DNA of 64,000 bases from Botryllus schlosseri. Taxonomy: Eukaryota. This document shows, one piece after another, positions 4,415 to 38,277 of the stretch. The translations under genes were made by a program, and so were the position numbers. Location: contig CM119372.1 in NCBI GenBank assembly GCA_051294905.1, positions 24,244,001-24,308,000 of the forward strand, given 5' to 3'. Within the stretch, counting starts at the first letter, position 1, and each line of letters starts with the position of its first letter. The notes beneath the pieces were generated by a model. That model was given only the letters and a program-made list of their open reading frames with translations, searched no databases and had not been told where the DNA came from.

Positions 4415-4599
4415 TCACATAGGCGAGGCAGTGGTGCTGGGATCCAAAGAGCACATGTCTTTGAAGTTACAATCGTTCGGGTCATTGTAGCCGAAGTATT
4501 CCAGAGCGGCATCCAAGTCCCACGTGCCGTCAGTAACGGGGTTGTTTAACGGCAGATCCAATTTTCTCTCATTATGAAAGACTTGCAACTTCTTTTTGC
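4415..4599 (-). CDS. MINPP1: MINPP1-like exon 8, terminal (GKKKLQVFHNERKLDLP...CNFKDMCSLDPSTTASPM*)
   Basis: ttacag| acceptor phase 1; NE motif and C-terminal Cys pair; TGA at 4417..4415. Confidence 0.9.
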
Positions 4600-7500: not shown

Positions 7501-10500
7501 TTTATCCCGAGTGCCGCATTGAACATCGAAATCCATTCGCGGACCGTACTATATATAGTAAAATCCGCATATGAAGCCGTCCGTAACACTATATCCTCTT
7601 AAGCCATATTGTAACCGAAGACACGGAGACACATATATATGCTTAAAAGAAACCACATATTGCTTTGATGGTAACGCACGCGCGTCAGAAACATGAACGA
7701 GATTTTATAAGCTGGCTCTCAATAACCGAGCCGTAGTTTGCCCACCGTGACCGCTATCTGCCATTTTCAAGGTTCACTTGCTGAACACGCGACCGGATCT
7801 CAGATTCGCATCATCCTGATTTTACGCAGTTTATAAATATCCGTGCTTATTCGAATCTCGTGAAGTATTCTTCCAGAGGACCGCTAACGTGGCATAATTC
7901 ATAACGCAAGATTCCTCCACATGATTAAACAATAGGGTGTAGGCCTATTTCCACTAACCGCCGCACTCGTTCACCAAAAATGCCAAATTTGCTCCATTCG
8001 CTGCGATTTCCGATTTCTTGAACGTCCGATTCAGTCTTTCTGGATATTCTTCCGCCTTGAATGGACCCTCGTTCTGTAAATTATTTCGGAATCTCAACCG
8101 AACTTGCCCGAATAGGAATGTAGGCAAATGTAACACGAGGCACATGTTGCATTTATAGACTGCACAAAGTGCACATCGATGTCAACGGCTCATTCTGTGC
8201 CAAATCAATTTCTGCTATTAACTTGCTTCACCAAGTTTGCTTTTGAATATTGTTGTGAGAAGCCGCTGTTCGTTAGGGTTGCGTTTAAAACATAAATCAA
8301 TTTAAAACAAACATGTTTAAAACAAGGCCTTAATTTAAAACGTGTTTTTAATTGTTTTTTATGTTTTTTTTTAAGCCATGACGTCACGAATATTCAATTG
8401 TGACGTCATATTGGATTGACACTGACATTTGAAAATATAGGGTCAAAATAGGTCCTTTGACGAAATATATGTACTATTGCTTTGAACAGACTATTTTGAG
8501 GGTTCCAACCATAGTGTAGTGGAGATAGTGTACTGGTTACGATAAGCGCCTAGCACACAGACGAACCGCGTTCGATTCCCGTCGGAGGTTTATCTGGGCT
8601 CCTCTTCCCCTGCCGTTGCCGTTCTTACGGTGACAAAAAAGCCCAGAAAAAGACCTGACGAAAGAAAGCACTCACATTGAATGGAAAAGAACTAGTTGGA
8701 AGGGACCGCGGCTTCAAAGAGATCAACATCGAAAAAGAACTGTGACATCGGGCACTCTAGGTCGAGGTGTATGTTAGAGTAAAGGATCGCTACTGATGTG
8801 TGTCGTTCTACATCCTCCTATCTGTTCATGACATCGCATTGTACATTGTGTGTGACTTGTTCAGATCAAAAATATAACCCAACCATGTTATATTATGTTA
8901 TCGATAAACGTCGGTAATTGTCCGTAGGCTCACACAGCATGTTTTTTGTAAAGTGTTTACACAATTATGGCATAATTTTACAATAAAAAACACAATTTTA
9001 TTTTTGAAAAGGCCTTTTTTTAAATGTTTTAAACAAAGTGTTTTAAAACACCGTTTGTTTTAAATGCAACCCTACTGTTCGTATTCCAACTCATAGCTTG
9101 TGGTAACAACTAATTGTCCAGTGATTTTGTCGATCCATCACATTTAAATATCACTTTAAAATCAGACCTTTTACCCGATGATGAGAGGAATAAAAACCAA
9201 GAATTATTGTTGGGATCTTGGGAATGAATTGTTACATGGGAGAATAGCATAACACAATGTTACGATGATCCGGGAATAAAGTTACCGTCCTCATCCAGAG
9301 AACATGAGTAAGGTTACAAGATCCTGATTCGAGTCTCGGCTGTAGCATATTTCGAAGTGTCGACTTATCGGAGGTTTGTCCATGCTCCCTCTACCCTACG
9401 TCGCCGTTCGTACGGCGCGTTTACTTATAAAAGCTCAAATAAAGACCCAGTAAAGGACTATTGAATATAGCAAGGAAAACCGTCTAACTCAGCCTAAACA
9501 TCAAGATCAAACACTTTTACGCCGGGTATAAGACTGATGGGATGTCAGAAGCAGTCTTGATTGATTCTATCTTCCGTATCGGATTGTACAGTTGTGTGTT
9601 TTGAGCGGATGAAATTTACTGAGCCACTGACTGTATGGTAATGTACATCGTTTTTAAACACGTCAGCAAATCAAAGCTTGTAGAACTGAAATTGCTGCGA
9701 ATTTCCAGCGAGTGATACTCCAGGTAGAGTCGATGAGCTTGCATGCTAAGAATCACGTTTCACCGCTAGTACATGAGTAAAGAATTTTATTCTAATTTCG
9801 CATTGCTGTCTATAACAGTTTACGCGATTTCACGCCACCGTTGGATGCGTCACTGCAACACCTGACAGTCAAGTGTTTACTTTTCAGGAATTCAATGATG
9901 TTGCACTAGTTATCCATAGATCACATCCATTCAATAATGTAGTTTAGGTATCTTTGCAGTTGCCTTACAATTGACCAAATTGCTAATAAAAGTCGTACTC
10001 TATTTCACGAAAGTCGGTAGAAATAACACATGTCTCCCAAAAGACGAGGTGATGTAACCACGGGCCTGGGTTTCATGACGCATCTCACAACTGATCCCTC
10101 CAGATTCTCTCCAGGGTCCAAATTGCTGGAAATCATCCTTACCTCAATCAATTTCATATCCGCAAGTAGTCGTAACAACATCCATCCGTGACCGTTTAAA
10201 AAATGACTGGCATTGTTGTCATCGCTAATATTTTTCAACGCATCCAAAAGAAACCTTTTCGTGACGCAACCCGACTTGTAACTTAGCTCGGTACCAAACC
10301 CGTGTCTCACGTATGAATCCAGGTCATCTCTGTATTCGAATGCTGCAAAGTAAAATGCATGTAAGCTGTATGCCTTTTTTCTATACGCCAATGCTTTTTC
10401 GCGTTACGAAACTAAATTTGTAGGTGACATCGTTTGGTCGACTTGGATTAACGATTTCACATAAATTGACTAGACTCGAGGCAATTTGTGGAATTGACTT

Positions 10501-13500
10501 GACTTGTACTGGACTCGGCGGTACAAAAATATGGATTCACTCGTGACTCGAAGCAAAATTTTCAACACTGTCATCGGTGTCACTGTAACTTGCATAAACT
10601 GGTTCGGGGCCAATCCAAACCTGGACAAAAAAGTTGGAACCACCACATTCCACCACATCTTCTGACATTTGGTACATGCATAGAGGAATTAATTTTGAAA
10701 AAAATAAACTTTATTCGAGAAAAATTGGACTTCGGGTTAAAATTGACAATTTTGTGCTCATTTCAGCTCTTCTGCATTCAGGTATTATCAATAGATATTG
10801 GATTGCAGTTGAGATTTGGCCCTCGGATTTCTGAGTAGCTAGTCTAATGGTCTATGTTCCCATGTGATATTAAATGCCATACGGTGTAGGGTTAAAAGTG
10901 AAATTAAAGTGAAATTTGATCGATGGTGTGATATCGGTCAAGCGTTACACAATTCAGAATGCGAATTGTTCAAAACCATAGACAAATAATCTAGTGCAGT
11001 GCTTTTCAACCTGTGTGACGGTTTGCACTAGTGCGAATGAAAAAAATTGCAGTGCGAATGACGGAGGTGGTGCGAACGGTGCGAATGAAAATCTCGGATG
11101 AGTGCGAATGACGGAGGTGGTGCGAATGGTGCGAATGAAAATCCCGGATGAGGGCGAGTGAAAATCGTGAATGATAATTGTTGATTTTTCTGACCTGGAA
11201 TAATTTAAATAAACTTATTAGGAAATTCAAGGGCAGTGTAACTTTTGTTGTTGCGACGCAATTGTAAAAACTTGTTTAATTTACGATGCACCACTAATCG
11301 TAGCTCTCACAAGCCGCAGTGAATTGATATTTTCGCACTGTAATTATTACGTAACGAAAAGCCTGGCTCGGAAGCTTGTGTAGTGGGAGACATACAGTAT
11401 ATCAGCCCGTCTGAGCCTGCGACAGGCTCGAAAAATGACGTCAAATTGACTTTCTGCTTTCTTTGGCTAAAAATCATCATACTTTCGCAATAACTGTTCG
11501 ATTATTGCGAGGCACGAGGATAGTAGTAAATACTATCATTACAGACTCACATTTGCAAGTTACTGTAACGCAAATTTTTACCCCGTCAAGGGTTATTGAA
11601 GTATGGACCGCAAAGGGTAAAATTTTGGGTTGACGCGTTGGCAGAGCTATCCGTTAATATGTATGTAATATCTGTTGAATTTATTGCAAAAATCCTGCGA
11701 TAGTTTTTACAAATTCAAGGTCACGAAGTGGAGTAGGCTACTCTAGCCAATAAGTGAGACACGCAAAAAATATGGTTTTATCATGAGAATTCATGATAAG
11801 ATTTGTCCGACTGGTTTTTCTGGAAAACATGGTCGGAGACCGTTTGGATGAGCTAGTGTAGGGACTAGGGATGTGCAACGAGCGAGTTCAGGTCTATGAG
11901 ACTCATTCATTTCGAGGCCAACCCCTTCTGAGTCGGGTCAAATGATGACGCAAAGTTTTGGCCAACAAACTGCTGATGAAATGTGGTGCCAAAACATAAG
12001 AGTCGACAAAACCTTGGCCCAAAAATGAGCGATGCTGAATGGCCAAACCATTCGATATGGATTTGCTCCGTTGTCGGCACGTAATAGTCCTGTTCTTGCA
12101 ATCTGAGTAAGACAGTAATACAGCAACTGCGACACGCGTAGGTAGGCCTATTTAATGCACCCTAATTTGAAATCGCGTGCGTCAGACATATATTATAGAG
12201 CTGTGTTGGGTAGAATTGTGGTGTGCGCATTCTGTATGTCATACATGTCCGTAAAATCGTAGCATAGGCCTACTACTGTAATATTCAAAATGAATTCATT
12301 TTCAAGGGTGTGGCTCGGGTCGCGAGATGCCACAAAAACTCAGATTTTGGTTGTAGTCTAAAAAGCTGCTTTAACGTTATGAAACTGTTATGAATTCTCA
12401 AGTTAGATTGAGCTAAAGAGCAGAACACACAGTATCGTCAGTTTATTTGCTCTTCCCACATACTCGCGAGATATAAAATGGTAAATCGAAAAAAGTCTCA
12501 TAAGGTAGCGAGCTCTAATGTGCTTACTCTTCTTGATCGTTTAGACCTTATTTTCCAAAACATAAGGCAAAAGCCTCATACAAACAGGTGGGGTTTTCAC
12601 CCTTTCGACATACTGGAGCCTCCTAGACCTTTTCGTCAGCTCTCGAACAAATTTTAAGTCCTGGCCATCCAAGCGCTAGTAGACGTTCTTGTACAAAACC
12701 CAACAACTTGTTAGGCAGAGAAGGGTTTTAGTGAAGTAGTTGAAATCAAAACGAGCGAAAATAGTAGCCTTTTTAATGAGACACTACACTTGTTTGTTTG
12801 TTTGTTTGCGGTATTCATGGTGTTTGTCGACTACTATGGTCATTTACACTAGGCCGATATTTTTCATTTTTATTCCGTAACTGCCGACTTATAGCACGGT
12901 CCACTTCTATGCTTTTTGTAAGACACCGCTTACGCGGATGAGGTGACGGGCAGGAGCCTAGATAAACCTCCAATACTTAAGTATAGAAATTCTGAAGTCG
13001 ATCTCGGTCGGACTCGAACCAGCAACACTTGATAGCTTAAGATACATAATAGACAATTTGTTGCACATCTGAACAAATAAATGTTGTGTTTTCATCTTCC
13101 TTTTGCATAACAATTTTCGGTTGGTTTGTGCGAATGAAATTTATTTTACAAAAAAAGTGCGAATGAAGCGCAAGAAGGTTGAAAAGCACTGATCTAGCGA
13201 GTAGAGTATTATATGAAAGCTGAGTCCAAGGATAATTTATCATAGCAGTTGCAGTTTGTTTTTTTGACTGTATATAAGCGGGTAAAATTGCAGTCCCAAG
13301 AGTACACCGCATTCGTACATGGAAATGGGTAAGTTTGGAATATGTTCTGAACCAGTGGTTCTCAAACTTTGTTTACTTATCAGGAATAACTCGAAGGCAG
13401 ATTGTTGGTCAGTGTGATAGATCATAGTCACTATAGCCTACGATGGCTGATCTATACTACGTAAACTTGTTTCGTGTCTTGATATTTTAGGAATCCATAA

Positions 13501-16500
13501 GGTAAGACGATTCTTTAAAAGACGTCACGGACTAGGAAAAAGTTGGGAACCACTGAATTTTGCCAAATGGAATTGTTAGATTAAGACCTGAACTGATTAT
13601 TGAGAGTGTAGCAGTGACACCAGCACAACAGTTCTTTGCATTGTATATTTGAGCACTGTATGTTGAATAAATAGGATGAGCCTTACCGTTTTGCCTCTGT
13701 GAATTACTAACCATTCTTTCCCTCTGCCTACCTCTATGAATTTCGGGTGATGAGGTCTCGCGAAGCATATAAACTGGACCGTAACTGCTGCACCCCAAAC
13801 CCCCTAATTAAGGGGAGGCGAGCTCGAAGGGGGCCCTGAATTATTTCGTCAATGAATATGAATTATAATTAGAGAGTTTGAGTATAGAATATGAAAATTG
13901 ATGCAACTTAATTCGAACTTTTTTTCGCGCCAGGCGCGATTTAATGTTGCCAAGTATCTTGATTATTGGGAAACACCTAGACATATGAAGTTTTTGGCCA
14001 CGTAACATGCGACTCCGAGAAGTGTGCCAGAACGGTTGGCATCGGGAAAACCTTGGCCGAGAAGGACTGCCCTTATGCATTATGAAAACTTGTACATATA
14101 TATTCAGATATGTTTAATTGTCCATAGTCGTCTAAATGGCTAGCGCCGAATTTTCCTGTCCTGGCAATCTGAACCCCACCAGACAAATGCTATCCCACAG
14201 AGAAAAATTATTTGCCCATGAAGAAATACCGATTTGAAATCGTGAGCGTCTTTTAGTTTGGTACGTTTAGGTGATTTCAATATCTTTTGCAATAACAGCC
14301 AGGTCACGAAATAACATCATGTAAGGAAGTCATTATACCAACGAGCCCGCCCGAATATGTTTAATTATTATTACGTACCCATACATTTTGCAAGACAACA
14401 CCTCACTCCCACAATAACAAACTTTTTGACTGAGACACATATTTTTCCATACGTTGTGGAATTCGTTCTCGCAACAAAGCCATATATTTGAGTTTATATT
14501 TTGTAATGCAATACCCACCCCTAGATGATAAATGACTTTTTGGATATGGCGAACAAAACCACTTGCGTTATAATCGTCAATCAAATAATAATCAACAACA
14601 ACAACAACCTCACTCAGCTTTACCGGTATATCTGATCACGTGGGTAAAGAGAGGATTAAAAAGTTATAGAAATATGTATGCAATTCCCGATAATATTGAG
14701 CGATTCAATAATGAATTATAGAAAATTTTCCTCAACAACTTCAACATCTTATGTTTTCAAATTCATATGAAATCTCAGAAATAATTATCCTAATACCCAA
14801 GTTTAAGTGGTAGAACGATAATGCCCCAACGACATGACACTGGTATGATGGGAGTATAGATGCTGAATCAAAACATCGTTAAAATTCAAACCAAAATATG
14901 GAACTTTGGACGAAATTCACACCACAGGAAATGAACAAACAATTCGTACTTCCTCACCGTCTAGATCTTCTCTTGTAAACACCCGACACCACGGACTATC
15001 ATTTCCGTCTACTGCCACTTGTTCCGCACAACCTTCGAAGTACAAAGTATTCAGAGTATTGATATCTATTTCACTCAGTGGCACGCCGAGTCGTTTTGCA
15101 ATGTCCGATGCCATCTTCACAAACACGTGGCCTGGAACAGTAAAAGTAGTCGGAAAGTAGTTTTAAATAAGGAATTATATAAATCATTTAAATGACAGAC
15201 CGATTCTGAATCGAGCATTATGCCTCAAGCCGAGTCGAGTACTAGAGTATTATTCATCATGACGTGATAAAGACATGAGAGATGTGGGAAGTTCATTATC
15301 TAAATTTTGTGCGATCATAATGAATATATTCTCATTTCTACATCACATTCAATACAATTTAGTATTTTTACGACCATGCCTATTTCATGTAGGATTGCAG
15401 TGGATTAATCGCGGCTGCACAGATATGTCATTTCGGCGAATGTGCGTCGATTTGTACTACATGTTACGTATGCTGAGGTACGACTAATCGATATTTCACA
15501 CACACGTGGGAAAAGCATCACTCTCGCTTCAGGAATACCTGGAACACGATTTTTGGTAATGTCGAGGTGACGAAATTTGCCTCCGTCAATACTATATCTC
15601 CAAAAATGGCCGACATTTCAATTGACTCTCCCTCAGCTTCTACAGGTTGTAATCGAGCCGAAGTTGATCTGCAGCTTTTTTAGGCAACCTAACAATTTAA
15701 TCAGTGAATCCCAGAAAACCGAAAAAAAGTTATCTTTTTAAAACCCTAGAGCACAGCACATGCGTACGTGCGAGTGTTTGGGGCTGGCGAGGAACATAAA
15801 CGCCTCCCGAAATATACTGTTTATCACCGAATAGGTGCATAAAAATATAGTTTTTAACTATATTTGTTTAATTCAATAAATTTCGATAATGTGAGGAAGG
15901 ATATTCATTTAGCAACACATCAACAGAAGAACAAGTGGCAAATGATAGCAATCAAATCAGCGGCATTGTGAAAATTTTTATACCGTTTGCAAATTTGTTT
16001 TTTTCAGCTAAAATGTTTTCGTTTATCCACACTTCTTTCATGAATCTATCACACTTCGCGAGGCCGAATATGATGGTGTCGTTTATGATGATTGGTTGTG
16101 ACGAATTGGACGTATGTTCCATAAACACTCTTGCAGATTCCCGCGTCCTCTGATAGTTTGACGAATAATATCTGTATAGAAACGAATAGGCCGAATAACA
16201 TCATGTTAGTATTCTCGGTAAATATGTGTTATACAGGGCTTTGGAGCAGCCGTAAATTTAAACTGCTCCAGCTCCAGCTCCGGAGCTTTGTTCTATCATA
16301 CATTAGCTCCGGCTCCAGCTCCGGAGCCGCATTATTACCACTGCTCCGGCTCCAGCTCCGGCTCCGGCTCTGAAATTATCGAATGGGCCTGTCTATATCA
16401 GGGGTGGCCAACACGCGGGCCAAATGTGCGAAAACGAAGACATAGGTGCCGCCGTGCCGGCTTGTGACGTCATAATGAATACTTGTCAATTTTCGATAAC

Positions 16501-19500
16501 ACCATAGTTGCACTAGAACGCACTTTACTCTATGCCATTGCTGTGCACAGCATTAGAATTCGGGCCTGATGTTCAATTATGATAAATCAGCAGATGTGGT
16601 TGTTGCATATATAATAGCATCTTATGAAATACGTCGGAGCCGGAGCTACTCCTCAAATAACGGGCTCCAGCTCCGGCTCCGGCTCCGGCTGAATTTTATG
16701 TACAGCTGCGACTCCGGCTCCGGCTCCAGCTCCGGTGAAAATGCACGGCTCCGGGGCTCCAGCTCCGGGCTCCGGCTCCGGCTCCGAAGCCCTGGCTATA
16801 ACTAAGGCGGTTTTTTTACCGAATAAAAGGAAAATTTTGACCTATAAAATCAAAATTTTGACTTTTTTTGACCTAAACAAACTGATTTTGACCAAATTGA
16901 TTTTGAACAAATTTAGACGAAATTTAGACTTAACGTATGCAAATTAGGTGTTTTTCCACCTAATGTTAAAATTGTACCACTTATCTTCACTTGTGGTTGT
17001 AACTGGCTGTCCTAACGAAGTAGTTTGGCCTGAAAAAACGTTTTTGGCTTAGAAACAGGCAACTTTTTACATGAAAAAAACAGAATTCAAACGAAATCTG
17101 GCCCTATGAAGAATTCCAGTGGTTACAATACGTATTATGGTAGAAATCATTAAATTTTTTGTAGTACAACGAGCGATACTTTCCTACATTCTTGCGTAGA
17201 AAGTGCATGTCCTTACTAAGAAACTTGCTAAGGACGTTCAACAGCAGCAGATGTTGGCTGACAACACTCAAGTTGTGCGTACACTGCTGGTGACACACCG
17301 TGTTGCTTCATTCTGACAATGTTGTCCACATCACTATTTTTCATCATGCGCTTCTCAATATAAGAATGATGCAATGCCCAAGAAGTCTTTCTTCAGTTAG
17401 GATATTGCGGTACGTTGACCATAATACCATGTCTACCTATTTGTTTTATTTGACCGTTTATGATTCATAATAAGCAGACAATTAGCCGTTTACAACGGCA
17501 GGCCTATATAAAGTCGGCTACAAGCTGTAATATATCAAATGATAACTTCACCAACAGTGCAAAATCTATGATACAAACGAATTGCAGACGTCAAAATTTT
17601 TTTGACTTTATGAACAATTTTGACCAATTTTGACCTAACGTTACAATTCTGACAAAATTTTGACAAATTCTGACATATACAATTGAATAGTATATTCATA
17701 TTGAAATGAACCCGAATATTTTCGGCTGACACTCGTCAGGGGTAATCGTCAGCAACTAGTAGAGAATTGGAAAGAACATTGTATATTAACAATCTTATCA
17801 CAAAATATGACGTCACCAGCATATTTTGTGATACTCATTCATCATCATCATTGGTTTATTAGCAATTTTATCAGTTCAATACGATTTTTCAATACGATTT
17901 TTGATACACAATGTTCTTTCCAATTCTCTATACTAGTTGCTGACGGTTACCCCTGACGAGTGTCAGCCGAAAATATTCGGGTTCATTTCAATGTGAATAT
18001 ATTATTCAATTGTATATTGAAGTTCTGTACCTCCAAGAAGCTCTTCAAATTCTGACATGTCAAAAAAAAACCGCCCTAGTTATAACCAAAGCATGTTGCG
18101 GTAACATAGTGTCACGATTAGAGCCCGACCGATTATCGGCTCGCCGATAATATCGAGTCGATATCACGCTTGGAGAGAAATATCGGTATCGGCCATTGAA
18201 GGTAAAAAAATATCGGCCATTTTCGTGACGTCACAACATGGTGGCAGGGAGTCAAGAGAAGTCGATAAAAGACGTGAGGACGGTCAATTATAAAAATTAA
18301 TGGCCAAGCTGCATATAGTGCATACTGCATGCATACAGGGCAGTAGGCGTGTCTATCTGAAAAATATTATAGATAACTAACCACCGTTATGCCCCACTGA
18401 ATTCGTGGGAATCCCCCTGCAGTAATCGATCACCAAAGACAGAGAGCAGCTGGATGGATAGTTGTCTGCAGAAAATTTCAGTCAGTAAGAGAAATGAGAA
18501 CTTCAATCATGCTGGACTGACCCTCGTAATGATAGAGAAAAGCGTCGCGTCGAAACATTTCCCGGTTCGGTACCAACAGAGCTAATTATACCAGTAATGT
18601 ATGAAGTCGTCTGACTGAGGCCTGCGGCTGCGGGGCCACCATGATAGGAAATATGCGAGCATAGAGGGCAAGAAAATCAAGCAAACGTGGAGTAAAGCCA
18701 ATAATTCGTACGAAAATTTTTGATTCCATGATGACATTGGCCAATTCTGACAAAAGATTGTAACATATTGATCAATTGATTGTTGAAATGTTGGTCAAGG
18801 TCCATGGGGGATGGGTGGAGCAGTTGCAGACGTGGACAATTTGAGTTGTTTTGCACATTCTCTTCAGCTATTTGTTAATGATGTGCTGAAGGCTCTAGGT
18901 GCATTGTCAGAAGAATATCAATATTTGGTTAAACCATTGAAGGAAAGATCCCCTGCGAGGGAGCGGTGGAACCGAAATGAAGAAAGATTTCCTGCTGTGC
19001 TACTAACTAGGCCTATGCTACCAAGTGAAAGACTGCTCACTGTGTTTAGTACTATATACATCATCTGTGGAAGACCACAGAAGTTCACTCCTTGGAGAAA
19101 GGGCCGAGAGTTTGTGCTTCGTGAACTGTAATCTGCAACTGCTGGATTGGTGCTTTTGATACATTTTTATAGTTCCTTGATCATTTATTTCATGTTCAAG
19201 CATATCAATGGCTGTAAAGTTGTTGAAAGAAATGCTCTTGAGGTGTTAAATATGGGCCTTGAGCTAGATTCCATATCTTTTGAATATCGGCTGAATATAT
19301 CGGGGTTATCGGTGGAGGTACTGGATATCGGTCTTATCGGTATCGGCTCAGAAATCCAATATCGGTCGGGCTCTAGTCACGATGCATGTGAATGTGTAGG
19401 TTATGGAAAAAACATAGCTAAGTAGGGCTTTGTTGAAAATATATTCAATCATGTAATACAGGGTCCAGCTCGGACCACTCGCACTTTCCGCAATATCAAG

Positions 19501-22500
19501 ATATGATTAATAACGAAGTACTTGTACTGTCTCGGAGTACTCAAGTAGCTTTTTGTCATCTTTAATTTCTCAAGTGGTTACGCTACTACTTCCAATTCTA
19601 CTTAACAGTTTTTTATTCTACTTAGTTCTCGCACTTTAGATTTGTGGTATGTTTGTATCACCGTTATATGACATTGCCCATCTCTCCCAGGAACTGACTG
19701 AATTTTTGAAAATCTAACTACCATTAGTATTATTAGCCATGTTGCATTATTCGCTAAGATACACACTATAATTTCGGAAGTTGAAACCTCCGATTCACTG
19801 CTAAAACTATGCAAATGGTCCATCTCAGCTACTTTTTGACACCGTACTTGAGTACTTTACAGATTGTCGTTTTCCACCATCTCTTGAATTAGTTTTGACA
19901 TGTCTTGTAAATCACTATTTTTACTTGCACTTCAGAACCAATTTTAACTACTTTGACCACTGACAATAACGATGTCTATATATCAAGCGTCTTCATCTAT
20001 ACGCGCCACAGGGGGCACAAAACGCTCTTTGATCCGTCTTTAACTAGAATTTGGCAATCATAGATTTCAAGATTGCGTAAAGCGATAGTACTGGAGGTCA
20101 GGTCCAAATTTTGAGATAACAGTGTCCAGCATGTTAATGAATGTTTAGAAATTGTTCCAAAAACTACTTCTTGGTCCCCGCCCCGGGATTGAAGTGACGT
20201 AGATATTAGTGCTGAAATACTGACATACTGACAGGTTACTCGGCATCATGAAAAACTTAAAACGTCTGCCACAAAGTCCATAACGAATGCTAACAGAACT
20301 TCAAAAATCTAAACTGTGTGTATATGACTTCAAGCCAATAATCAAAGAGAAAAGATTAGGTGATCCTGGAGAGCCGTCTATTTAATATCAAGACCTCAAC
20401 TCCAGAAATTCGTCTGTCGATGGCTTCATCACTTTAGGATATATTTAAAATTTTCACCGCTGGACGGCTAGTCTCATAACGGTTTCGCAAGCTTTCGCGA
20501 CCGCCAGCATTACTTGAAATGTCAATTTCGGAACAGTGTATACTGTAAAAAAAAGATGGGTTTTTAAATGAAATATATATTACAATATATATATTAAATC
20601 TCAAACATGAGGTGTTGCTAAAGTTTATTACGTCATAGGTACCGACAGAGGTTATCAGTAACGAAGTACATCTTTTATGCCAAGTAAATTTTGCCTACTT
20701 GCATGACTTCTTCAAGTAGGTACGTTTTAGACTACTTCTACTTTTCATTAACAGATTTCAGCTACCTAGGCCAAACTAGGGCTGGAATCTTTACTTTTTC
20801 ACTTAATTGGAAATCTCTTCACTTCAACTTGAGTACCAACGACAACCTCTATCGACATCGTCAATAAAACTGTTGGTAATAATAACGAGTTAGAGTATGA
20901 GCGAAACATTATATTCCTAAAAGTGATTTGGCACTTTTACTGATGTTGTTTTAATGAAGAGTTCAAGTCAAGTGGTCAATCGCAGGCCATGATAAAAGGT
21001 ATCGCGGACCGTTCTTTCGGTATCCCAGACTGGATCGAACGAGTACATTTATTTCGACTGCAGATATTTCGTAGCTCTGCACCCACTAATAATTATTATA
21101 ATCATCAATTCTACCTAGTTGTACCATTTATCTCGCTCATCAACATATTTTACCGGATAACAATATGTGAATGTGTCTGCATCATCTCTCAATCTCTGTT
21201 TGTGAATATTCACATAAACAGCGGTATAGAATTTCGAAACGAAGCCATTACATACTTAACACGACTCGTTTCCGAAAAAAGCTGTGGAAAGGTCTTTGCA
21301 AATCTTTTCCCGAGCTCGATCATTTCGCGGTATCCCAGATCCGTAAGATCTTCTTTTAGGCCAGGATGGTACCAATTACGCCACTGACCGATTTCCTAGG
21401 AAAATCACATCAACATTTTACAGATATTTATTCAAATTAAGAATATCATGTCATGCATCAGAGTGTCAATTTCAAGCTGATGTTCCTAGAACTCTTATTC
21501 TAATCCGATTAAAGATTTAGTATGAGATTAAAAGGATTGCCAAAACGAAGTTAAATTCTTTTAGAGGTAAAATACGGATCAATGATACTTTCTCCATTTT
21601 ATATATAACATTAATTCTCTACTAATTCTATATCATCAATTCTCTACTAGTTGCTGACGATTACCCCTGACGACTGTCAGCCGAAAGTATTCGGGTTCAT
21701 TTCAATAGGGAAATACTATTAAATTGTATATTGAAGTTCTGCACCTCCAAGAAGCTTGTCATTAATTTTTTACGTAAAAGTATGGAAATCACGCAGTGAA
21801 CTTTTTCCGGTAATTGTCGGAGTAAGATGTTTTTTGGAAAAATAAGATCGATCATAATTTTATCTAATCCATTCTTGATTCTGGAATTGTTATGTACTGA
21901 TGTTGGTCGCATAACCCCTGAGCATTCCTTTCGCACACTTGTGTGCGACGGAAAACTGTTTGCGAACCTCTGGCATACCCAATCAGTTAACGGTTTTATA
22001 TTCATCAAACCCTATGTAATTGCACAAAATCTGAACTGAAGAAGCATGGCCTATGTGGTTTTGCAATGCAACATCCATTGAAGAGTAACCTCCAAGTCTT
22101 TAGGACACATGTCCGCGGCTCCTGTTGCATTCAAGTTTTGCCGCAAAGTCTCCAGTCTTCCGAATTTTTCGGCCTCGTCGAATGTTGGTCTATGACGCGA
22201 GCCATGACGCACAAGGAGAACCATACCAAGGGGTTCGCAGCCTGTAGTCGAATAAATGTATCAATGTGAAAAAGACGGGCTGTTCTACATTGGAGAAGTG
22301 GTCTACATATAGCTCATGGCGCGTTGCATTTTTCTGATTTTTAGACCAGTGATAATTATCCCAAAAAGGTGACGTGATAGAAACAAATATCGTCATATTC
22401 GGATTTATCGCCCGCAAACTAGGCAAAAACGATCCAAACACAATCTGCAAGAAAATTTTTGGTAGATCAGTGAGTTTGGCAACATTAAAAAATACTATTC

Positions 22501-23190
22501 TTTAGTCGATTTTATGCTCTCAGTCAAGAAATTCATTTTTGCTAACTCATCTACGACCAATCAGCGTTGACACCAGATAAGCTAACGTGGTCAGTCCTAT
22601 GCTCGCACATAGGTTAGTCAAAGCATTTTTAGGATTCAGATTGACCGAAAAAATCCAATTCATACTCCCAAGACTATTGTAATCTCCTCTGTCGATTAAA
22701 CTTCAATTCAACCAGACTTTGTATCGGTAATAGACTTTTATAGTTAGAAATCATTGATATCTGTAGAGGTGGGGATCGTACTTATTCCGCGTCGTAGCAA
22801 AGCGGTGTCGCAGAATTTATATTCACGAATATATATTGATCACCAATAAAACATCCATAGGCCAGGCTACGAAAATCAACATTAATGGAATAGGATTGTG
22901 AAAACTGCAAGAGCGCTATCGTTTTGCGTCGCGAAATTATGGCTATGACCAATGACGAGCAGCGGATAAATTAGAACGCTGGCATTAAACATCTAACCGT
23001 ATGGGACGCGATATAATGTTATATCTCCTCTTCCGGAGTCTTCGTAAGCGGTCGTCGTGTGATATTTCCTGTACGGATACTCGGGATCGTTTTCGAAATC
23101 AGAAGAGCAAAACCCTTCTGCGCTTATCGGAAGATGGCAAAGGATGTAAGATAAGATACATGTGGCCACCGTCAACAGCATCACAGACAT
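4415..23190 (-). CDS. MINPP1: Multiple inositol polyphosphate phosphatase 1-like (clade-2 histidine phosphatase), 8 exons, 448 aa: join(complement 22998..23190, 22090..22241, 21256..21395, 15984..16171, 14958..15131, 10143..10342, 7959..8073, 4415..4599)
   Basis: Manually spliced. All 7 introns are GT..AG with compatible phases (1,0,2,1,1,0,1), and 193+152+140+188+174+200+115+185=1347 nt is open to TGA. The protein has an N-terminal hydrophobic signal, RHGSR, LTDLGYREMIELGKRFAKTFPQLF, QRTRESA, CAEQ..SPWCRVFTREDLDAFEYRDDLDSY..GFG, ANLAFLVNEC and VFHNERKLDLP, which is the MINPP1 motif order. The intron 2 donor (GTTACT) is weak. Confidence 0.9.
5625..7105. mobile_element. hAT-type MITE (TIR (C/T)AGGGATGGTGTGAAC) with an internal ~6300..6775 insertion of another repeat
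   Basis: TIRs; TSD AAAGCTAC/AAAACTAC; colinear (inverted) with 59365..60362. Confidence 0.88.
7959..8073 (-). CDS. MINPP1: MINPP1-like exon 7 (NEGPFKAEEYPERLNRTFKKSEIAANGANLAFLVNECG)
   Basis: ttacag| acceptor, |GTTAGT donor; RxFxxSxIxxxxANLAFxxxxC motif. Confidence 0.92.
8274..9074. mobile_element. hAT-type MITE (TIR TAGGGTTGC(G/A)TTTAAAAC)
   Basis: TIRs and perfect 8-bp TSD CTGTTCGT; absent at the paralogous site near 29985. Confidence 0.9.
8513..8878 (+). mobile_element. tRNA-derived SINE family 2, inserted in a hAT MITE
   Basis: A-box-like TAGTGTACTGG, B box GTTCGATTCC, TSD CCAACCAT (8505..8512 / 8879..8886); the empty site is seen in the MITE copy near 35150. Confidence 0.8.
10143..10342 (-). 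CDS. MINPP1: MINPP1-like exon 6 (AFEYRDDLDSYVRHGFG...NGHGWMLL...LIE)
   Basis: ttgcag| acceptor, |GTAAGG donor; EYxxDLxxYxxxGxG motif. Confidence 0.92.
11031..11167 (+). repeat. 50-bp tandem repeat (~2.5 units) built from GTGCGAATG, subterminal to the hAT element
   Basis: 11051..11100 repeated at 11101..11150. Confidence 0.9.
12790..13025 (-). mobile_element. SINE family 1, 5'-truncated copy
   Basis: Reverse complement of the body from the B box to the (CAAA)n tail; short ACACTTG repeat at both flanks. Confidence 0.85.
14958..15131 (-). CDS. MINPP1: MINPP1-like exon 5 (HVFVKMASDIAKRLG...SPWCRVFTREDLD)
   Basis: ttccag| acceptor, |GTGAGG donor; SPWCxxF motif. Confidence 0.92.
15984..16171 (-). 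CDS. MINPP1: MINPP1-like exon 4 (YYSSNYQRTRESARVF...CDRFMKEV...KFAN)
   Basis: atacag| acceptor phase 2, |GTATAA donor phase 1; carries the conserved Arg of RTxxSA. Confidence 0.88.
16234..16794. mobile_element. MITE with (GGCTCC)n subterminal arrays (TIR CAGGGCTT)
   Basis: Terminal cagggctttggagc / gctccgaagccctg; absent at the paralogous site ~41830. Confidence 0.8.
17710..17743 (-). ncRNA. Minimal type I hammerhead ribozyme motif (intact copy, sense to the MINPP1-like pre-mRNA)
   Basis: Exact reverse complement of the 34-nt core. Confidence 0.85.
17949..17982 (+). ncRNA. Minimal type I hammerhead ribozyme motif (intact copy)
   Basis: Identical 34-nt core to 28557..28590. Confidence 0.85.
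18119..19375 (+). mobile_element. Internally deleted Ac-like hAT transposon (TIR TAGAGCCCGACCGAT)
   Basis: TSD GTCACGAT; transposase remnants CFAHSLQLFVNDVLK and RWNRNEERFP..PSERL; empty site near 41860. Confidence 0.92.
21256..21395 (-). CDS. MINPP1: MINPP1-like exon 3 (EIGQWRNWYHPG...FPQLFSETSRV)
   Basis: ttcctag| acceptor, |GTATGT donor, conserved LTxxGxxEMxxLGxRFxxxFPxLF block. Confidence 0.9.
21663..21696 (+). ncRNA. Mutated hammerhead copy in a solo pLTR (~21635..21755)
   Basis: Core CTGACGA/GAAA kept, but the stem II G is changed to C and the helix III palindrome is AGTATT. Confidence 0.6.
22090..22241 (-). CDS. MINPP1: MINPP1-like exon 2 (GCEPLGMVLLVRHGSRHRPTF...MCPKDLE)
   Basis: Acceptor ctacag|GC; contains the RHGxR catalytic motif; not reported in the ORF track in this frame. 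Confidence 0.88.
22998..23190 (-). CDS. MINPP1: MINPP1-like exon 1 (signal peptide; MSVMLLTV...YRVPY)
   Basis: ATG at 23190, hydrophobic leader, donor G|GTTAGA, phase 1. Confidence 0.85.
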
Positions 23191-28654: not shown

Positions 28655-31600
28655 AAATATGAGTCTAGTGTGAAACGCCGATTTGAGTATACTGTGTCGT
28701 GGAATATAATCTTATTATAACCGTATGGACTTGTGTACTGTGTTAGGCGTTCCTTGTAAAGAGCGCGGAGCAGGCGGCAATCGCAGAGAGACGATGTTCC
28801 GAGCCTAGTGACACAACCGCGTTATATTGATGTGATGGAGAACAGGCTTTTTTATTTACTTTACGGTCTCTTAAAAGTACATATTTAAACTTTCCACGTC
28901 GTACATACTCCTATGATGTCATAGTGAGTGATACTCGACTCCACTCCAAGTCAGACAGGCGACGCAATAGTGTGAATCTGATAAATGCATCTATGTTGTC
29001 CAATAATGTATTCACAGTGTAGCATGTAGCAAAGCAATTCGCACCGCAGTAGCAAGGGTAAGATTATCGTTGATCATGACAGTAGCAATATAATCAGACG
29101 TTGTGACCAACCTATACAGGATCATCACAAAGAAATAGGCATGGTCGAACCTTTGTTAGAAGTAGAGCCGGCATTATTTTCTTTTCAGTCTCTCACTCTT
29201 CTTGGATCCTTCCATTTGCAATGACATAATGATGTGGCACTAACTTCGACAACCCAGTACTCGATCCGGCATCGAATCATTCAGTTCACTTTTTCACGGC
29301 CCCTTTTGAATTTTTCAACGTGAGAAGATTGCTGCAGTTCATCATTCTCATGGAGTGAGCAATGCCAATATATAGTTGGAAAGCTAGCAACTAACCTCTT
29401 ATCGTTTCTAAATTAGATGTTATTCAAATTGACTTGAAGTGACAATCCCACCAAAGTTGAAGAATGACTGCATATCTGCCATTTTCACGGTTCGCAACTC
29501 GAATGCGACACCTAATCGAAGATTCGTATTGTTTAATTCTACGCAGGTTTTTGAATATCCGTGTATATCTGATTCTTGTGAAGCATTGTCCCACGGAAGA
29601 ACTCGTCAAGGGTATAATACGCAACGTAAAATTCTTTCCATTGATGAAACAATAGGGTGTATTCTCACTATAACCGCCTCACTGGCTCACCAAAAATGCC
29701 AAGTTTGCTCCATTCGACGCAAGTTCCGACTTCTTGAACGTCCGATTAAGCCTTTCGGTATATTCTTCCGCCTTGAATGGACTCTCGTTCTGTAAAATTA
29801 TTTTGCAATCTCAAACGAACTTGCGCGAATGTGAACAGAGGTAAATTTACCACAAGAGACATGTTGCACATATAGACTGTAGGACGATGGCATCGTCTCG
29901 TTACGTCTAAGTCAACTTCAACTATGACTCGAGTCATGAGGAAGATTTATTTCTATTTTGTCATTGAAGCATGTTATGAATAGCCAGCTTCGAGTCAAAC
30001 TCATAGTTTGTGGTAATAACTGATTTACTAGTGATTTTTACGGTCTTTTCCTGCTCGGTTGACATATTTCAGACTAAAATATAAATCTGAAACGATGACA
30101 GTAATACAAATCAGGAATTGTTGTACGGGTTAATAGCACAACAAAACGATATACCATATTCCGTCAACCAAGTAACCGTCCTTTTTAGGAGAACAATACC
30201 ACAAGACGCAGCATCAAGTCCCGGCAGTATAGCATGTTTTGCAGTGTCGAACTGTCGAGGTGGATGTTAAATTTAGAGACCTTACTGGATCATTCCGGTA
30301 TCCTTTTATCACTGGGCTACATTTAATCGCATTGTGTCTTATATGTCGCATTGAATATTGTGCGTCTTAGGCGGATAAAAATATTTCAACAACCAAGTGT
30401 ATTGTACATAATTCTTTATAAAACGGTGATATTCTGCAAATCATCTTGTTGAGACCTCAAGTTACCGCGAATATCCATCGTTTGATCACTGATCTTGCAA
30501 GCTAAGAATCATATTTATTCACTTCTGGTATACGAGGACGGTATTTCCATCTGGTTTTGGATTGTTGACTATTACAGTTTCCGTGATTTCACTTCACCAT
30601 TGGATGAATCACAGGAGATAAGTTCAATGACTTTGAACCGCGGTTGTCGCTATACTGCATGTACACAGGGATTGTCTCTTCCTTTATTTGTTTTCAGGTA
30701 TTTTTAGCAGTTGCCATAACATTAGTCGAATAATGATTATCATTAGTCATTAGTGTGCTCTTTTAGATTTGGGATCAGACGAGGATGCATTAAATTGATG
30801 CGAGGAAGAAGGATGGCTGCTCATGAATTTTACCAAGCCTACTAAAATATCATATATGTCACTGTATGTATAGTGTATAAGCAGCTATTGTGGTTTGGGG
30901 CGATGGAAAACCTCACTGTAGATATTTTACTGAGGTCAGGACACCATTCTTCTATTGCACACTGCCTTAGAAATCCTCAAACTTACCTAAAATTAGCATA
31001 ATAATGCACGATTTACCATGTAAAAGAATATTACTGTAAATGCAACATCCAATTGCACAGTGACAATGTAAATATCTTATTATTAAATGAATCGTAAGAA
31101 CATAACGGGGAAATGGATAACGAAGCGAAACAACATAACAAAGAAATGGGTTAATTTGACAAAAATATAATACCAATCAGGTGGATGAATGGGTTGATTT
31201 TTCGAAATTTTTAAATATTTGTCGGAGATCTTCCACGGCCTGTAAGAGACTGGCTTATGTTTTCTGTCGTCAGATATGGACTGGACATAGCGTGGTTCTT
31301 GACCATTATTCACGAATTCCCGAGCACTCATGACACGCGGATCACTATGCCATTCGGACATTAAAAGACTCTACCGGATGGTGTTCCACAGCTATAGCAT
31401 CAATATGAACCACGATTCTGTCCCAATCAAACACACAATTAAAAACATGACATATGTCTCTGTCATTGAATGGGTTTACAGGAGCTTTCAGAGTCACAAA
31501 TGTAGATGAATGATCGGATCAGATCAAAATCTATGCTATGGTGGGTGTCAGCTGCCTGTGAATAAGATATAGATGTGCTCTAGCTGTAAGTACACCTTCG

Positions 31601-31719
31601 TTACTTCATGCTGTTGCAGGTTGTCTTCTAGTTGTGTTCAGTCTTATTCTTGTTGTCTGATTTTGACTTTCAACAATTTATCTTTGCCGCCAATCGTTCC
31701 TAATCAGGAACCTCCATAA

Positions 31720-31912
31720 CAATGTTCCCTCTAAGCTGCGCACGTGCGCAAATGCGCAGTGCTGACACGGTCTCCGCGCACGGAAAATCGAAGTTGCGCA
31801 CAATAGATACGAAGTGATGACCTTTTTTTAGTCGCTACGCACTGTTGTCCAAGGGTCTGCACAGTGAGTTGATAAGTGTGCGCAGACTCGTCAAAAATTA
31901 GAGGGAACATTG
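31720..31912. mobile_element. 193-bp MITE (TIR CAATGTTCCCTCTAA)
   Basis: 15-bp TIR; TSD CTCCATAA/CTCCCTAA. Confidence 0.88.
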
Positions 31913-32531
31913 CTCCCTAATCAGGGTAGGAGATTTTGTATGATAGTTATGTAGCCTAATCGTCTCAAATGAGCGTTTTTGCATCAATTTTCGAAATAAC
32001 TCCAGGGGTTCCTTTCCTATATCACATAGCTTACGCAGTACAGCTTCAAAGTCACTTTGTGATGTTGCCACATACATTTGGTCCGAGACAGTTGAAGCAA
32101 ACAGCCTTTTTGCAGATGATAAAGAAATTTGAAGGCATAGCATTTTTCCACGATTGGGGGTCGCAGATTAGCAACGATTGGTGCCAAAGATGGAGAATTG
32201 ATAGTTAAACTCGGACAACAAGAAAAAGACTGAGCTGATAGAGGTTCACCGCAGCAGCAAGTGGCCAAGTAAACATACAGAAAACTGTTCCATATCTGTA
32301 CAAGCAGCTTGTTCTCCCCATTCATTGCAGTGATTTCGAAGTTGGACAATATTTATACGATCATCCATCTAAATTTACTACTCTGAAAGCCATTGTAAAC
32401 CAAATAAACGACAGAGATCCATGCGAGCTATTTGATCGTTGATTTGCTTGAGACGGCTTCTTCGTTCACAATGATGCTATGGTAGTAAAACACCATTGGA
32501 CGAGTCTTCCAGTTTCAGAATGGCATATAGG

Positions 32532-34211
32532 CAGGGTTGCCATCGACATGGACCCAAAAATAAGGACAGACAAAATATTAGACTAGCATTAAAAACCGTT
32601 TTTGTACATAGTTTGTATATATACGAGCCGTGGCAAATCACATTCCATACTTTTCCCAGAAACAATCTGCTCCAGCAACTCCTAGTCATTAGAAAGTGCT
32701 TCATGGATCTCACGACAGCTCTGGTCTCGGTCTACCGTTACCGAGGGCCGAAACAGCACTTCGTCAGCTCTCCCCAAAAACGCATTGGTCTTGACCCCCT
32801 CCCCATAGAGTGACAAACGAAACTTTGTCACCCTGTGATTAGACACGTCTACCAAGATGGAAAATGCCGCGCACCAAGTTTAGACAAAATCACTTTTGAG
32901 CGTAGGGAGCGATAAATACCGGTAACAATGCTAGTAGTCTTGGTCCTGGCCGAAGCAAACTTCTTTGCAATGCTGGAATCGGGGAATATTGCTTTGAACA
33001 ATTGCGATGTGAAATCGTTGGTGAGGAACGATTCCAGGTGTTGACAGTATGGAATGCCCAGGTACCATCAGCAGCAGCTGCATTGTAGTTTGTGGTCGTT
33101 GTTGCGTGTTGATCGACTTGTCAAAAAATTATTCATCGACTGGCTCGAATTAATCAATATGACTCAATTCTTGTGTTTTGGGGTATCAATGTGAGTTGAA
33201 ATAGCGGTCTTTCCTATGGCCTCCGGGCTAATGTCACAAATGCAGATATTGCAATGTGTCAAACACCCGCCCTTCAAGCTTCGTTAGATACCATTGAATT
33301 CTCTCTCATAATCGTCACGGTAAACGTTTTTACGCCTGCTCATTTTAACTGCATGATCAGATTCAGCCTTATTATTAGCTAAAACTATATGTGCAATATA
33401 ATTGAGATAAATTTATCAATGATTTATAGCTTTACTACTTTTTAACCAAACTGTCGAGTGTCGACTCACTCGACTGCACTGCACCCTTTTTCACCGCGTA
33501 ATAAAAATGCTGCCTTCCACACATCTTATTCTGTTGTAGACTAGACAGCAGGAACCTGATACTGCTGTTTACTGCTAAAATGAGGTCCGCTGTAATAGCT
33601 TGGTACAGCCGAAACTGCTATACCACCACTCAGACTCACTGCCCATATACGTGGCGAGATAGCGCAGTGGCTGAAATACCAATGGGTTGCGGGCTCGAGT
33701 CCGACCAAGGTCGGCTTCAGAATTCCTATACCTAAGCGTTGGAAGTTTATCTAGGCTCCTCCTCGCCACCTCATCCGTTCAAGCGGTGTCTTACAAAAAG
33801 CCTGGAAGTGGGCCGTGTTATAAGTCAGCAGTTACGGACTAAAAATGAAGAATATGGACCTGGTGTGAATGACCATAGTAGTCGACAAACACCATGAATA
33901 CCTACAAACAAACTCACTGCCCTAGCTATCCCACCGCCTAGAAGCGAAATCACGTGGTGTGTACGTCACGAGAGTTCCTTTCATCTTTGATGTCATAAAA
34001 TCTCTACGACAATGCAAAATTTTAGAATATTATGCAACACAAATACCAGAGTAAAACGATCAAATTTCTGTAGTGGTTGAAAATAAGACAAAAGAAGGAC
34101 GCAAGTCGAAAATAAGGACATTTCTTAGAAATAAGGACAGTTGAGTTTTCTAAGACGTGGCCCTTCAAAATGAGGACAAATCTTAGAAATAAGGACGGTA
34201 TGGCAACCCTG
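32532..34211 (-). mobile_element. hAT deletion derivative (TIR CAGGGTTGCCAT, AAATAAGGAC subterminal repeats) with N-terminal transposase remnant
   Basis: TSD CATATAGG; minus-strand remnants THCNICICDIS..HIDTPKH and LFKAIFPDSSIAKKFASARTKTT. Confidence 0.88.
33645..33911 (+). mobile_element. SINE family 1 copy
   Basis: Same head, body and (CAAA)n tail; 11-bp TSD ACTCACTGCCC (33634..33644 / 33912..33922). Confidence 0.9.
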
Positions 34212-34944
34212 CATATAGGTATCCGCATTTCATGAGAGCTCGAGAATTCGTGAATAATGGTCAAGTATTAAAAATCCAGCAGAATGTATGATAAAATTGA
34301 ATACCGACTACACTATATATGTGCCAGACGACAGAAAACAGCAAGTCTGTCTCTTACTAGCCGTGGAAGATCTCCTGCAAGAGTTCAAAATTTCGAAAAA
34401 TCAACCCATCAATCTGAGTAGTGTTGGATTTTTGTCAAAATAATCCATTTCATTGTTATATTGTTTCGCTTTGTTATCCGTTTCCCAGTTATGTTCTTAC
34501 GTTTCATTTTACAATAAGATATTTACAATGTCGTTGGGCGATTGGATTTACAGTTGTATTCTTTTACATGGTGAAACGTGCCAAATGATGCTCAGTTTTA
34601 GGTAAGTCTGAGGATTTCCAAGGCAGTCAGCAATACGAAAATGGTGTCCTGAACTCGAAAAATATCTAAAGTGAGGTTTTGCATCACCCTAAACCACAAC
34701 AGTTGCTTAAAACCTTACTTAAATGACATTTTAATAGGCTTAGTAAAATTGCGGCACTAAAATTTTAGGCGAATCCCCCATTATCAGCCGGTTATATTCA
34801 AACTCAACATGCACACAGATGCAAGGGATGAGTTACAGAAAAAAGTAGCTATAGGATATGTTTTTAAGTCATAAGGCATGGGAAACGGACTGAAAACCAT
34901 GACTTTTTGAAAGTCGGTCAATTCTGAACAACCCTAGTGACAGC

Positions 34945-35394
34945 TAGGTTTGCATTTAAAACAAACGGTGTTTTAAAACACTTTGTTTTTGTTTGAAATA
35001 GTGTTTTAAACAAAAGCCTTTTTGAAAAAAAACAATTTTTTTTTAAAGTTGTAAAATTATGCCATAATTGTCTAAATACTTTACAAAAAACAAGTTGTAT
35101 GAGCCTACGGACAGTTCCACCCGATATAGCTGACGTATATCGATATGGGATGGTTGGAACTCTAAAAATAGTCGGCTCAACATTATTAGTACATATATTT
35201 CGTCAAATGCGCTATATTTACACTACATTTCCAATTGTCAATGTCGATCCATTATGACTTCACAATTGATATTCGTGACGCCGTGGCTTTTAAAAATACA
35301 AACAAACAAAAAACAAAAAAAAACACTTTTTAAATTCGGGCCTTGTTTTAAACATGTTTGTTTTAAATTGATTTTTGTTTTAAATGCAACCCTA
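34945..35394. mobile_element. hAT-type MITE, same family as 8274..9074, opposite orientation, without the SINE
   Basis: TIRs; TSD GTGACAGC (34937..34944 / 35395..35402). Confidence 0.9.
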
Positions 35395-35431
35395 GTGACA
35401 GCGCTTGAACGACTCAAGATAACTTCATGAT

Positions 35432-36242
35432 TAGGGTTCTGGTTTAAGTCAGGCTGATTTAAGTCAGTGTGATTTAAATCAGTGTGATTTAAATCAGTTT
35501 TTTTCGTTGATTTTTATTTTTATTATTACCATTTTGATTTTACTGATTTTTTTAAATTTTTGGACGAGATACGTGAATGTGGTTTATTATCGGACAATTA
35601 TGTGCATTTTATGTAAACCGGAGATAGCATCTCGTCTCCAGCACCGGCATAGTTCAGCTATTTATGACAGACAGACAGACAGACGGGAAAAGAGCAAACA
35701 GCGATAGTCAATCAATGTGTTAGCGTTTTGCTGTGGATACTAGTTAGTTGCTATTTCTGAGGCACTGGTGGGATACCGCAAACGCAGCGAAATCCGGAGT
35801 CTGTATCGAACTCGAAAGATTCCCTCATCTCTGATCCAGTTTGCTGGCAGAAACCACTCCATCGATCAAGATGAAGATGCACCTATTATAGATGGTCCCG
35901 ATTTGACTCAACATGTTTCCTTGATACTAGAACAGCTCAGTAATAATTCGGGCGACCCATCATTAACGCATAGGTTAAACGTTTTCAGCTATCATTAACC
36001 AAATAGGTTGAATGTTTTCAGCTATCTGGATGATGATTCACAGCCCCACATTATTAAAGTTTAAGCGTTATCCTTCATCACCTTGATTGACATGGTAGTC
36101 ATTCATCCCATTTTCTCTTGTTCGTGTTGTTGTTATTATGAGTAAACACAAAAACAAAAAAATCAAAAGAATCATGATTTGAATTATTATGTTGATTAAA
36201 ATCGATTTTAATCAAGGGCAAAATGATTAAACCAGAACCGTA
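35432..36242. mobile_element. hAT-type MITE (TIR TAGGGTTCTGGTTTAA, GATTTAAATC repeats)
   Basis: TSD TTCATGAT. Confidence 0.88.
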
Positions 36243-38052: not shown

Positions 38053-38277
38053 GTGATTACTGATTATGTATGCCTGAGAGTTGGAATTCATTTCTTCATG
38101 CAAAGGCTTTGCAACCGTTGATTGGAAATGCAGCAATCCAGTCTGATTTGGTGTTACAATGAGCAAACAATTGCCACGACCAAGCTACTCAGAAGCTCGT
38201 TGCGTTAAACGTAAAATATACACACTTTCTCATTCGTAATCATGCGTTACGTGTATTGATTCTTGTCTGCATTATGT

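Follow-up and report, generated by a model that had tools for sequence, protein, structure and literature searches.

MINPPs are clade-2 histidine phosphatases (PF00328) that the literature describes by an HAE proton-donor triplet; PMC12580751 states this motif for birds, human, cereals and bacteria, and PMC7762957 calls the donor motif "frequently" HAE (papers are cited here by PubMed Central number). Arg183 of BtMINPP lies with HAE in a pocket named S2, where it pairs with a 2-sulfate (PMC3969271), BlMINPP is reported to hold phosphates through Ser51 and Lys54 of the loop after RHGxR (PMC7762957), and the description of active MINPPs with RHGSRGL indicates that the Pro of the RHGxRxP motif is not essential (PMC12580751). 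Here we analyse a MINPP1-like gene of Botryllus schlosseri in which the donor triplet reads HGW, located in a 64,000-nucleotide stretch of contig CM119372.1 that we call the window. Its product is real and unusual, though not unprecedented: it fits a donor-less clade-2 histidine phosphatase and departs from a canonical MINPP1 in the donor triplet, in the spacing of RHGxRxP and in the basic residue expected to pair with the 2-phosphate.

Gene structure and transcripts

Using six-frame translation of the window followed by splice-site tracing, we obtained a model of eight exons on the minus strand, from 23190 to 4415. All seven introns are GT-AG, and the joined exons (1347 nt) give 448 codons and a stop, with no internal stop and with an in-frame stop two codons 5' of the ATG. 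A previous sequence-only reading of this DNA had proposed an intact 448-codon MINPP1-like gene at 10143..22241; the frame is indeed intact, and the span holds for exons 2 to 6 but not as the extent of the gene, 10143 being a splice donor. The parts of the gene, in window positions, are:

22998..23190, minus strand: exon 1, with the ATG, a signal-like N-terminus (hydropathy peak 1.98 at residue 2) and HTTTAY, which includes Thr46 (K in 31/35 relatives)
22090..22241, minus strand: exon 2, RHGSRHRP with Arg76, the nucleophile His77 (22206-22204) and Arg80; one-residue insertion
21256..21395, minus strand: exon 3, LTDLG hinge motif; the sole exon with a Pfam match of its own, below cut-off
15984..16171, minus strand: exon 4, third catalytic arginine Arg170; Phe197 at the position of BtMINPP Arg183
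14958..15131, minus strand: exon 5, EGCAE (Glu257 and Glu261, candidate relocated acids) and SPWC
10143..10342, minus strand: exon 6, NGHGW with Asn332, His334, Gly335 and Trp336
7959..8073, minus strand: exon 7, Arg365 and the GANLAF strand
4415..4599, minus strand: coding part of exon 8 and stop, ending TTASPM; AATAAA at about 4239

Both motifs singled out by the sequence-only reading were found where it had placed them. RHGSRHRPT is coded by exon 2 (22209-22183, minus strand), RHGSRHRP being residues 76-83 of the spliced protein, and FLNGHGWMLL by exon 6 (minus strand), where HGW, residues 334-336, is read from 10190-10188 (His334), 10187-10185 (Gly335) and 10184-10182 (Trp336, TGG). In a Pfam scan of single exons only one of the eight matched (exon 3, His_Phos_2, E 0.005), at 16.7 bits against a cut-off of 23.6, which the full-length relatives P0002 and P0003 pass with 57 and 93 bits. 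Further candidates for exons, near 21050, 20500, 9300 and 5600, did not hold up on account of stops, wrong phase, repeat origin or lack of homology.

The protein has a hydrophobic, signal-like N-terminus, seven N-glycosylation sequons and twelve cysteines, its C-terminus carries neither an endoplasmic reticulum retention signal of the KDEL-like type found in vertebrate and plant MINPP1 nor a membrane anchor, and it is predicted to be secreted. At the C-terminus of P0002 and of its relative P0014 there is a hydrophobic helix (membrane anchor), which the window protein and P0003 do not have; anchored and soluble forms coexist in the ascidian subfamily defined below.

Four sequencing runs from four studies were aligned to 4000-23400; three of them (X2, X5 and X9) are RNA by our guess and not by record, and exon joining was read from contig blocks, the exon junctions not being among the 15 of 252 joints listed. 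In X2, exons 6, 5 and 4 follow one another directly in record 1 (866 letters), each of them free of differences, and the leftover lengths of this record together with the bin depths fit exons 7 and 3 and parts of exons 8 and 2 exactly; record 6 equals 22997-23174 in exon 1, again with 0 differences. Cover of exon 2 is inferred from the X2 bin depth (1.39 expected, 1.39 seen) and that of exon 3 likewise from bin depth (2.96 expected, 2.95 seen). In X5, record 7 contains exon 6, with one difference whose place is not listed, and exon 8, with 116 letters between them, the size of exon 7. RNA is only a guess for X2 and X5, but their contigs skip multi-kilobase introns, which gives spliced contigs in two studies. 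Raw RNA reads from 6% of run X23 cover exon 6 at a rough depth of about 17-fold. In X9 no depth was seen for the bins of exons 1, 2, 3, 6 and 8.

A cDNA built with another exon 6, which would have undone the HGW assignment, did not appear: the contigs of both studies use this exon, in X2 letter for letter. Trp336 itself is confirmed only in X2, possibly the same strain as the genome (40 of 879 differences listed). An annotation artefact or a sequencing error at Trp336 was rejected because X2 is identical and because the relative P0001 also has HGW.

The donor position among relatives

A profile-free search with exon 6 against 1.84 billion representatives returned six matches: P0001, P0002, P0003 (Styela clava XP_039274263), P0005, P0006 and the spurious P0004 (BRCA2-like, E 5e-6), which was discarded. 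P0001 is an unspliced copy with 48/56 identical residues. Querying with P0002 recovered a second Styela clava protein, XP_039253883 (P0014), and with the second domain of P0005 31 more relatives, of which 17 are named, all of them arthropod. P0005, 753 residues long, contains two tandem MINPP domains, of which the first is incomplete, and may be an assembly chimera. Searches of other kinds were less productive: with exon 6 against longer proteins none of 119 candidates scored, single exons gave no more than chance matches in the PDB, two metagenome scans confirmed 0/205 and 0/596 stretches, and atlas searches led to MINPP1 clusters only.

To fix the register of the donor motif, relatives were aligned with solved MINPPs. 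The HTQ of P0002 falls on the HAE of 7zgf and on the HAQ of the 6rxf mutant, the HST of P0014 falls on the HAE of 4fdt, and the HGW of the window protein stands in that same column; Trp336 thus replaces the donor Glu, as the sequence-only reading had held. Nor is the HD motif of the HD-type histidine acid phytases present, His334 being followed by Gly, and when all six reading frames of the gene were searched for another HAE or HD equivalent, as this reading had called for, no competing motif turned up.

Over 38 rows the triplets are HSG (22), HGW, HDT, HSS and HTP (2 each), and HTQ, HSF, HSQ, HST, HTG, HQA, HDK and EDE (1 each). This census leaves out P0004, isoforms P0007-P0010 from Styela and, in P0005, the first domain, which is incomplete. 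Its sample is biased, with most rows coming from an HSG query and with no vertebrate or plant protein. Although MINPPs are described in the literature by their HAE donor, none of the 37 invertebrate relatives has it: three have HD, one reads EDE and so lacks the His, and the other 33 carry no acid at either donor position, which places the loss of the acid before the window gene. The proteins of the ascidian subfamily show HTQ, HST, HSF, HSQ and HGW, all acid-less, and the named arthropod MINPP1 proteins mostly HSG. The census shows the missing acid as a trait that the ascidian subfamily, both Styela clava paralogs included, shares with many arthropod MIPPs, and the idea that it was a rewiring particular to this gene is not supported. 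No paper was found that deals with MINPP1-like proteins of ascidians or with donor motifs of the HSG type, in a search where subscription journals were mostly uncovered and supplements with family alignments may show such motifs.

A quick, unrooted tree with no HAE outgroup joins the window protein to P0002 with a support of 99, and to the two Styela proteins with a support of 100. We define here an ascidian acid-less MINPP1-like subfamily by membership of this Styela clade, by EGCAE and by the lack of an acid after the second His; the window protein has all three. A model of P0002, which is 43% identical to the window protein, shows the two-domain fold (alpha/beta plus alpha) in this relative; its mean predicted local distance difference test score is 87.6 (a first model, on a shallow alignment, was poor at 60.9 and was discarded). 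Its best match is BtMINPP (Foldseek E 1.5e-18, Z 38.7, root-mean-square deviation 3.2, 376 aligned residues), with Z of about 34-35 against fungal phytases and about 25 against prostatic acid phosphatase.

A rebuilt pocket around an intact core

Residues were tallied against 35 full-length relatives. The motif set of the clade-2 histidine phosphatases is present in conserved columns: Arg76, His77 and Arg80 are shared with 35/35 relatives, and Arg170 and His334 with 34/35, which bears out the statement that the nucleophile, three arginines and the second His are kept. The RHGxRxP motif, in turn, is one residue longer than its exact spacing, as had been noticed: from the second Arg to a conserved TG there are 24 residues, compared with 23 in all three closest full-length relatives, the exact site of the extra residue within the loop being ambiguous.

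The surroundings of this core are altered. Position 197 maps onto BtMINPP Arg183 through P0014, whose Lys205 aligns there; its column holds R or K in 30/35 relatives, H in 2, Q in 1 and a gap in 2, with no hydrophobic residue other than the Phe of the window protein. An aromatic residue at the position of Trp336 is otherwise found only in P0003 and P0001. Where BtMINPP has Arg and Ala-Glu beside the scissile phosphate, the pocket here would thus be formed by Phe197 and Gly-Trp. Over the nine positions that follow the second Arg, the net charge is -2, -3, -2 and -4 in the four subfamily members, against a mean of +0.8 in 32 other relatives, of which 3/32 are also at -2 or lower. Judging by these alignments, what sets the window protein apart is the wider rebuild (Trp336, Phe197, Thr46, Asn332 and the loop insertion) around an intact Arg-His-Arg-Arg-His core. 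An inositol-phosphate-binding protein, one of the options raised earlier, is weakened, since Phe197 and Thr46 replace basic pocket residues.

A decayed duplicate and selection on the gene

Upstream of the gene lies a decayed partial tandem duplicate (29675..44010, minus strand) with stops and frameshifts, in which exon copies and intron stretches are retained at 70-85% identity. Copies of exons 1, 2, 6 and 8 were not found in the window; those present are:

about 44010-43871, minus strand: copy of exon 3, still open
41774-41587, minus strand: copy of exon 4, with a stop and frameshifts
39749-39587, minus strand: copy of exon 5, with deletions and a stop
29789-29675, minus strand: copy of exon 7, with a stop

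Phe197 and the changed motif of exon 5 are also present in the duplicate, and both changes are therefore older than the duplication. Over 195 codons the gene and the duplicate differ by 0.41 synonymous (dS) and 0.084 nonsynonymous (dN) substitutions, and the dN/dS of 0.20 (bootstrap 0.12-0.32) shows purifying selection on four exons (3, 4, 5 and 7).

These values bear on whether the gene is merely a redundant paralog under relaxed selection that is turning into a pseudogene, as its neighbour has done. The decay of the adjoining duplicate would agree with this, as would the absence of contigs on exons in X9 and the long branch of the window protein in the quick tree (0.89, compared with 0.37 for its sister P0002). 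Set against it are the dN/dS at this dS, the intact frame and splice sites, the spliced contigs in two studies and the exon 6 depth in X23, and the fact that the sole coding difference among the 40 of 879 listed is silent (Asp411). We consider this explanation very unlikely.

The locus also contains repeats. Intron 3 has hexamer arrays of the CTCCGG/CTCCAG type at 16270-16380 and 16650-16800, in opposite orientations. A 343-nt inverted-repeat element at 17675-18017 resembles a miniature inverted-repeat transposable element, and a 1.3-kb element, likely a DNA transposon, is present in two oppositely oriented copies that are 89% identical (18117-19375 and 48885-50169). At about 8520-8870 there is a short repeat resembling a short interspersed nuclear element, with further copies in the window; the mean X23 RNA depth in its bin exceeds 6000-fold.

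Possible catalysis without the textbook donor

The sequence-only reading had moved from the missing acid to a possible pseudo-phosphatase, a step that does not stand by itself. The donor-less mutant AppA D304A is reported to keep about 0.1% of its turnover (kcat 10.5 vs 10,209), with phospho-His trapped in the crystal (PMC9181005), and the clade-2 domains of Vip1/PPIP5K, whose second motif is H[I/V/A], are described as active in cleaving phosphoanhydrides (PMC13573052); the loss of the donor alone therefore does not mean a dead enzyme. The reading that we favour, and to which we give an even chance, is that of a slow, secreted enzyme without the donor, a phosphohydrolase or transferase whose substrate is not inositol hexakisphosphate (InsP6). 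The protein would be a glycoprotein secreted from the cell and placed on the MINPP branch, in an ascidian subfamily where the Glu of HAE was already gone, and its residues Arg76, His77, Arg80, Arg170 and His334 would bind the scissile phosphate and form phospho-His77. With no general acid/base at 335-336, turnover would most likely be slow, with phospho-His breakdown as the rate-limiting step; the preferred substrates would have a leaving group that needs no proton, such as phosphoanhydrides or aryl phosphates, and the phosphate could possibly be passed to an acceptor other than water. Given the Phe197 and Gly-Trp pocket and the Thr46 in place of Lys, the substrate is probably not InsP6, and may be less anionic, aromatic or cationic.

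Several observations weigh against this reading. Ala264 replaces a Trp present in 32/35 relatives and Asn332 a Phe present in 35/35, and either change, like the loop insertion, could distort the site. The E401Q mutant of BlMINPP is reported to be inactive (PMC7762957), and loss of the acid can accordingly abolish turnover. The pocket geometry comes from low-identity sequence alignments; the dN/dS does not extend to the motif exons 2 and 6; P0001, an unspliced read-through that may be a recent paralog or come from a close species, adds little evolutionary depth; and the long branch is compatible with relaxed constraint.

Much of this would suit a pseudo-phosphatase, that is, a catalytically dead secreted protein whose Arg/His cradle binds a phosphorylated or sulfated ligand. 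Such a protein would accommodate the bulky Trp and the absence of an acid at 335-336, the insertion, the Asn in place of an invariant Phe, the inactivity reported for E401Q, and the purifying selection that is seen despite these changes. On the other hand, all five residues of the catalytic core are kept, the nucleophile among them, acid-less clade-2 enzymes can be active, and the lost basic pocket residues argue against tight binding of InsP6, for which reasons we regard it as somewhat unlikely.

A relocated acid would lead to a different enzyme, an efficient phosphatase possibly still acting on inositol phosphates at acid pH, with Glu257 or Glu261 of EGCAE, Glu285 or His81 as the donor. EGCAE is invariant in the four full-length subfamily members, the column of Glu261 is acidic in 32/35 relatives and that of Glu285 in 35/35, His81 occurs in three of the four subfamily members, and the spread of HSG among arthropods (22/38 rows) suggests an alternative catalytic solution. 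Drosophila Mipp1 is reportedly active on InsP6. The same protein is described as lying outside the cell, on the membrane (PMC7705663). This proposal is improbable in our view, considering that the window protein has lost the Arg183 equivalent and Lys46 and that the loop after RHGxR, where BlMINPP holds phosphates with Ser51 and Lys54, is acidic in the subfamily.

Going beyond the slow, donor-less enzyme that we favour, the protein could be secreted, have the histidine-phosphatase fold and act as a phosphotransferase or as a carrier of phospho-His whose aromatic acceptor pocket (Phe197/Trp336) is new, derived from an invertebrate MINPP lineage that catalyses without the textbook donor, and as such an extreme case of an undescribed donor-less mechanism common to ascidian and arthropod MIPPs; we offer this only as a rather doubtful extension. 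Taken alone, the gene is a single paralog that evolves fast in a single lineage, and no phenotype is known for it. How acid-less invertebrate MIPPs with a basic inositol phosphate (InsP) pocket protonate the leaving group is a question wider than this locus, and HST, HSF, HTQ and HGW, with the window gene as the most remodelled member found, form a natural series that could separate donor-less catalysis, a substrate switch and a pseudo-enzyme.

Comparison with known systems

With MINPP1 and the bacterial MINPPs (BtMINPP 4FDT/4FDU, BlMINPP 6RXD-G) the window protein has in common RHGxR, the third Arg, the second His and a putative secretory signal; its nearest full-length relative P0002 has, by its model, the fold of BtMINPP. 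It differs from them in having HGW for HAE, Phe for Arg183, an extra residue in RHGxRxP and an acidic loop after that motif, and in lacking a KDEL-like end.

P0014, P0003 and P0002 belong to one clade with the window protein, at 34-43% identity, and share EGCAE and the absence of the acid (HST, HSF and HTQ, respectively). Unlike it, they keep Lys46, Phe332, Trp264, the usual length of the loop and, at 197, a basic residue or His; P0002 and P0014 also have the membrane anchor. To our knowledge none of the three has been assayed. The 17 named arthropod MIPP/MINPP1 proteins are likewise mostly acid-less (HSG, HSS, HTP, HQA, HTG), but at 22-28% identity they retain Lys46 and Arg197, their loop is mostly basic, and a few have HD; from these residues their InsP pocket looks intact.

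Outside the MINPPs, the phosphatase domain of Vip1/Asp1/PPIP5K is likewise that of a clade-2 histidine phosphatase with an acid-less second motif and provides a functional precedent (PMC13573052), although it is cytosolic, fused to a kinase and equipped with a lysine-rich channel, with no relation of membership to the window protein. AppA D304A (HAT) resembles it in keeping the His with the acid gone, and it turns over slowly with trapped phospho-His (PMC9181005), with the difference that AppA D304A is a laboratory mutant of a bacterial phytase in which the basic pocket is intact.

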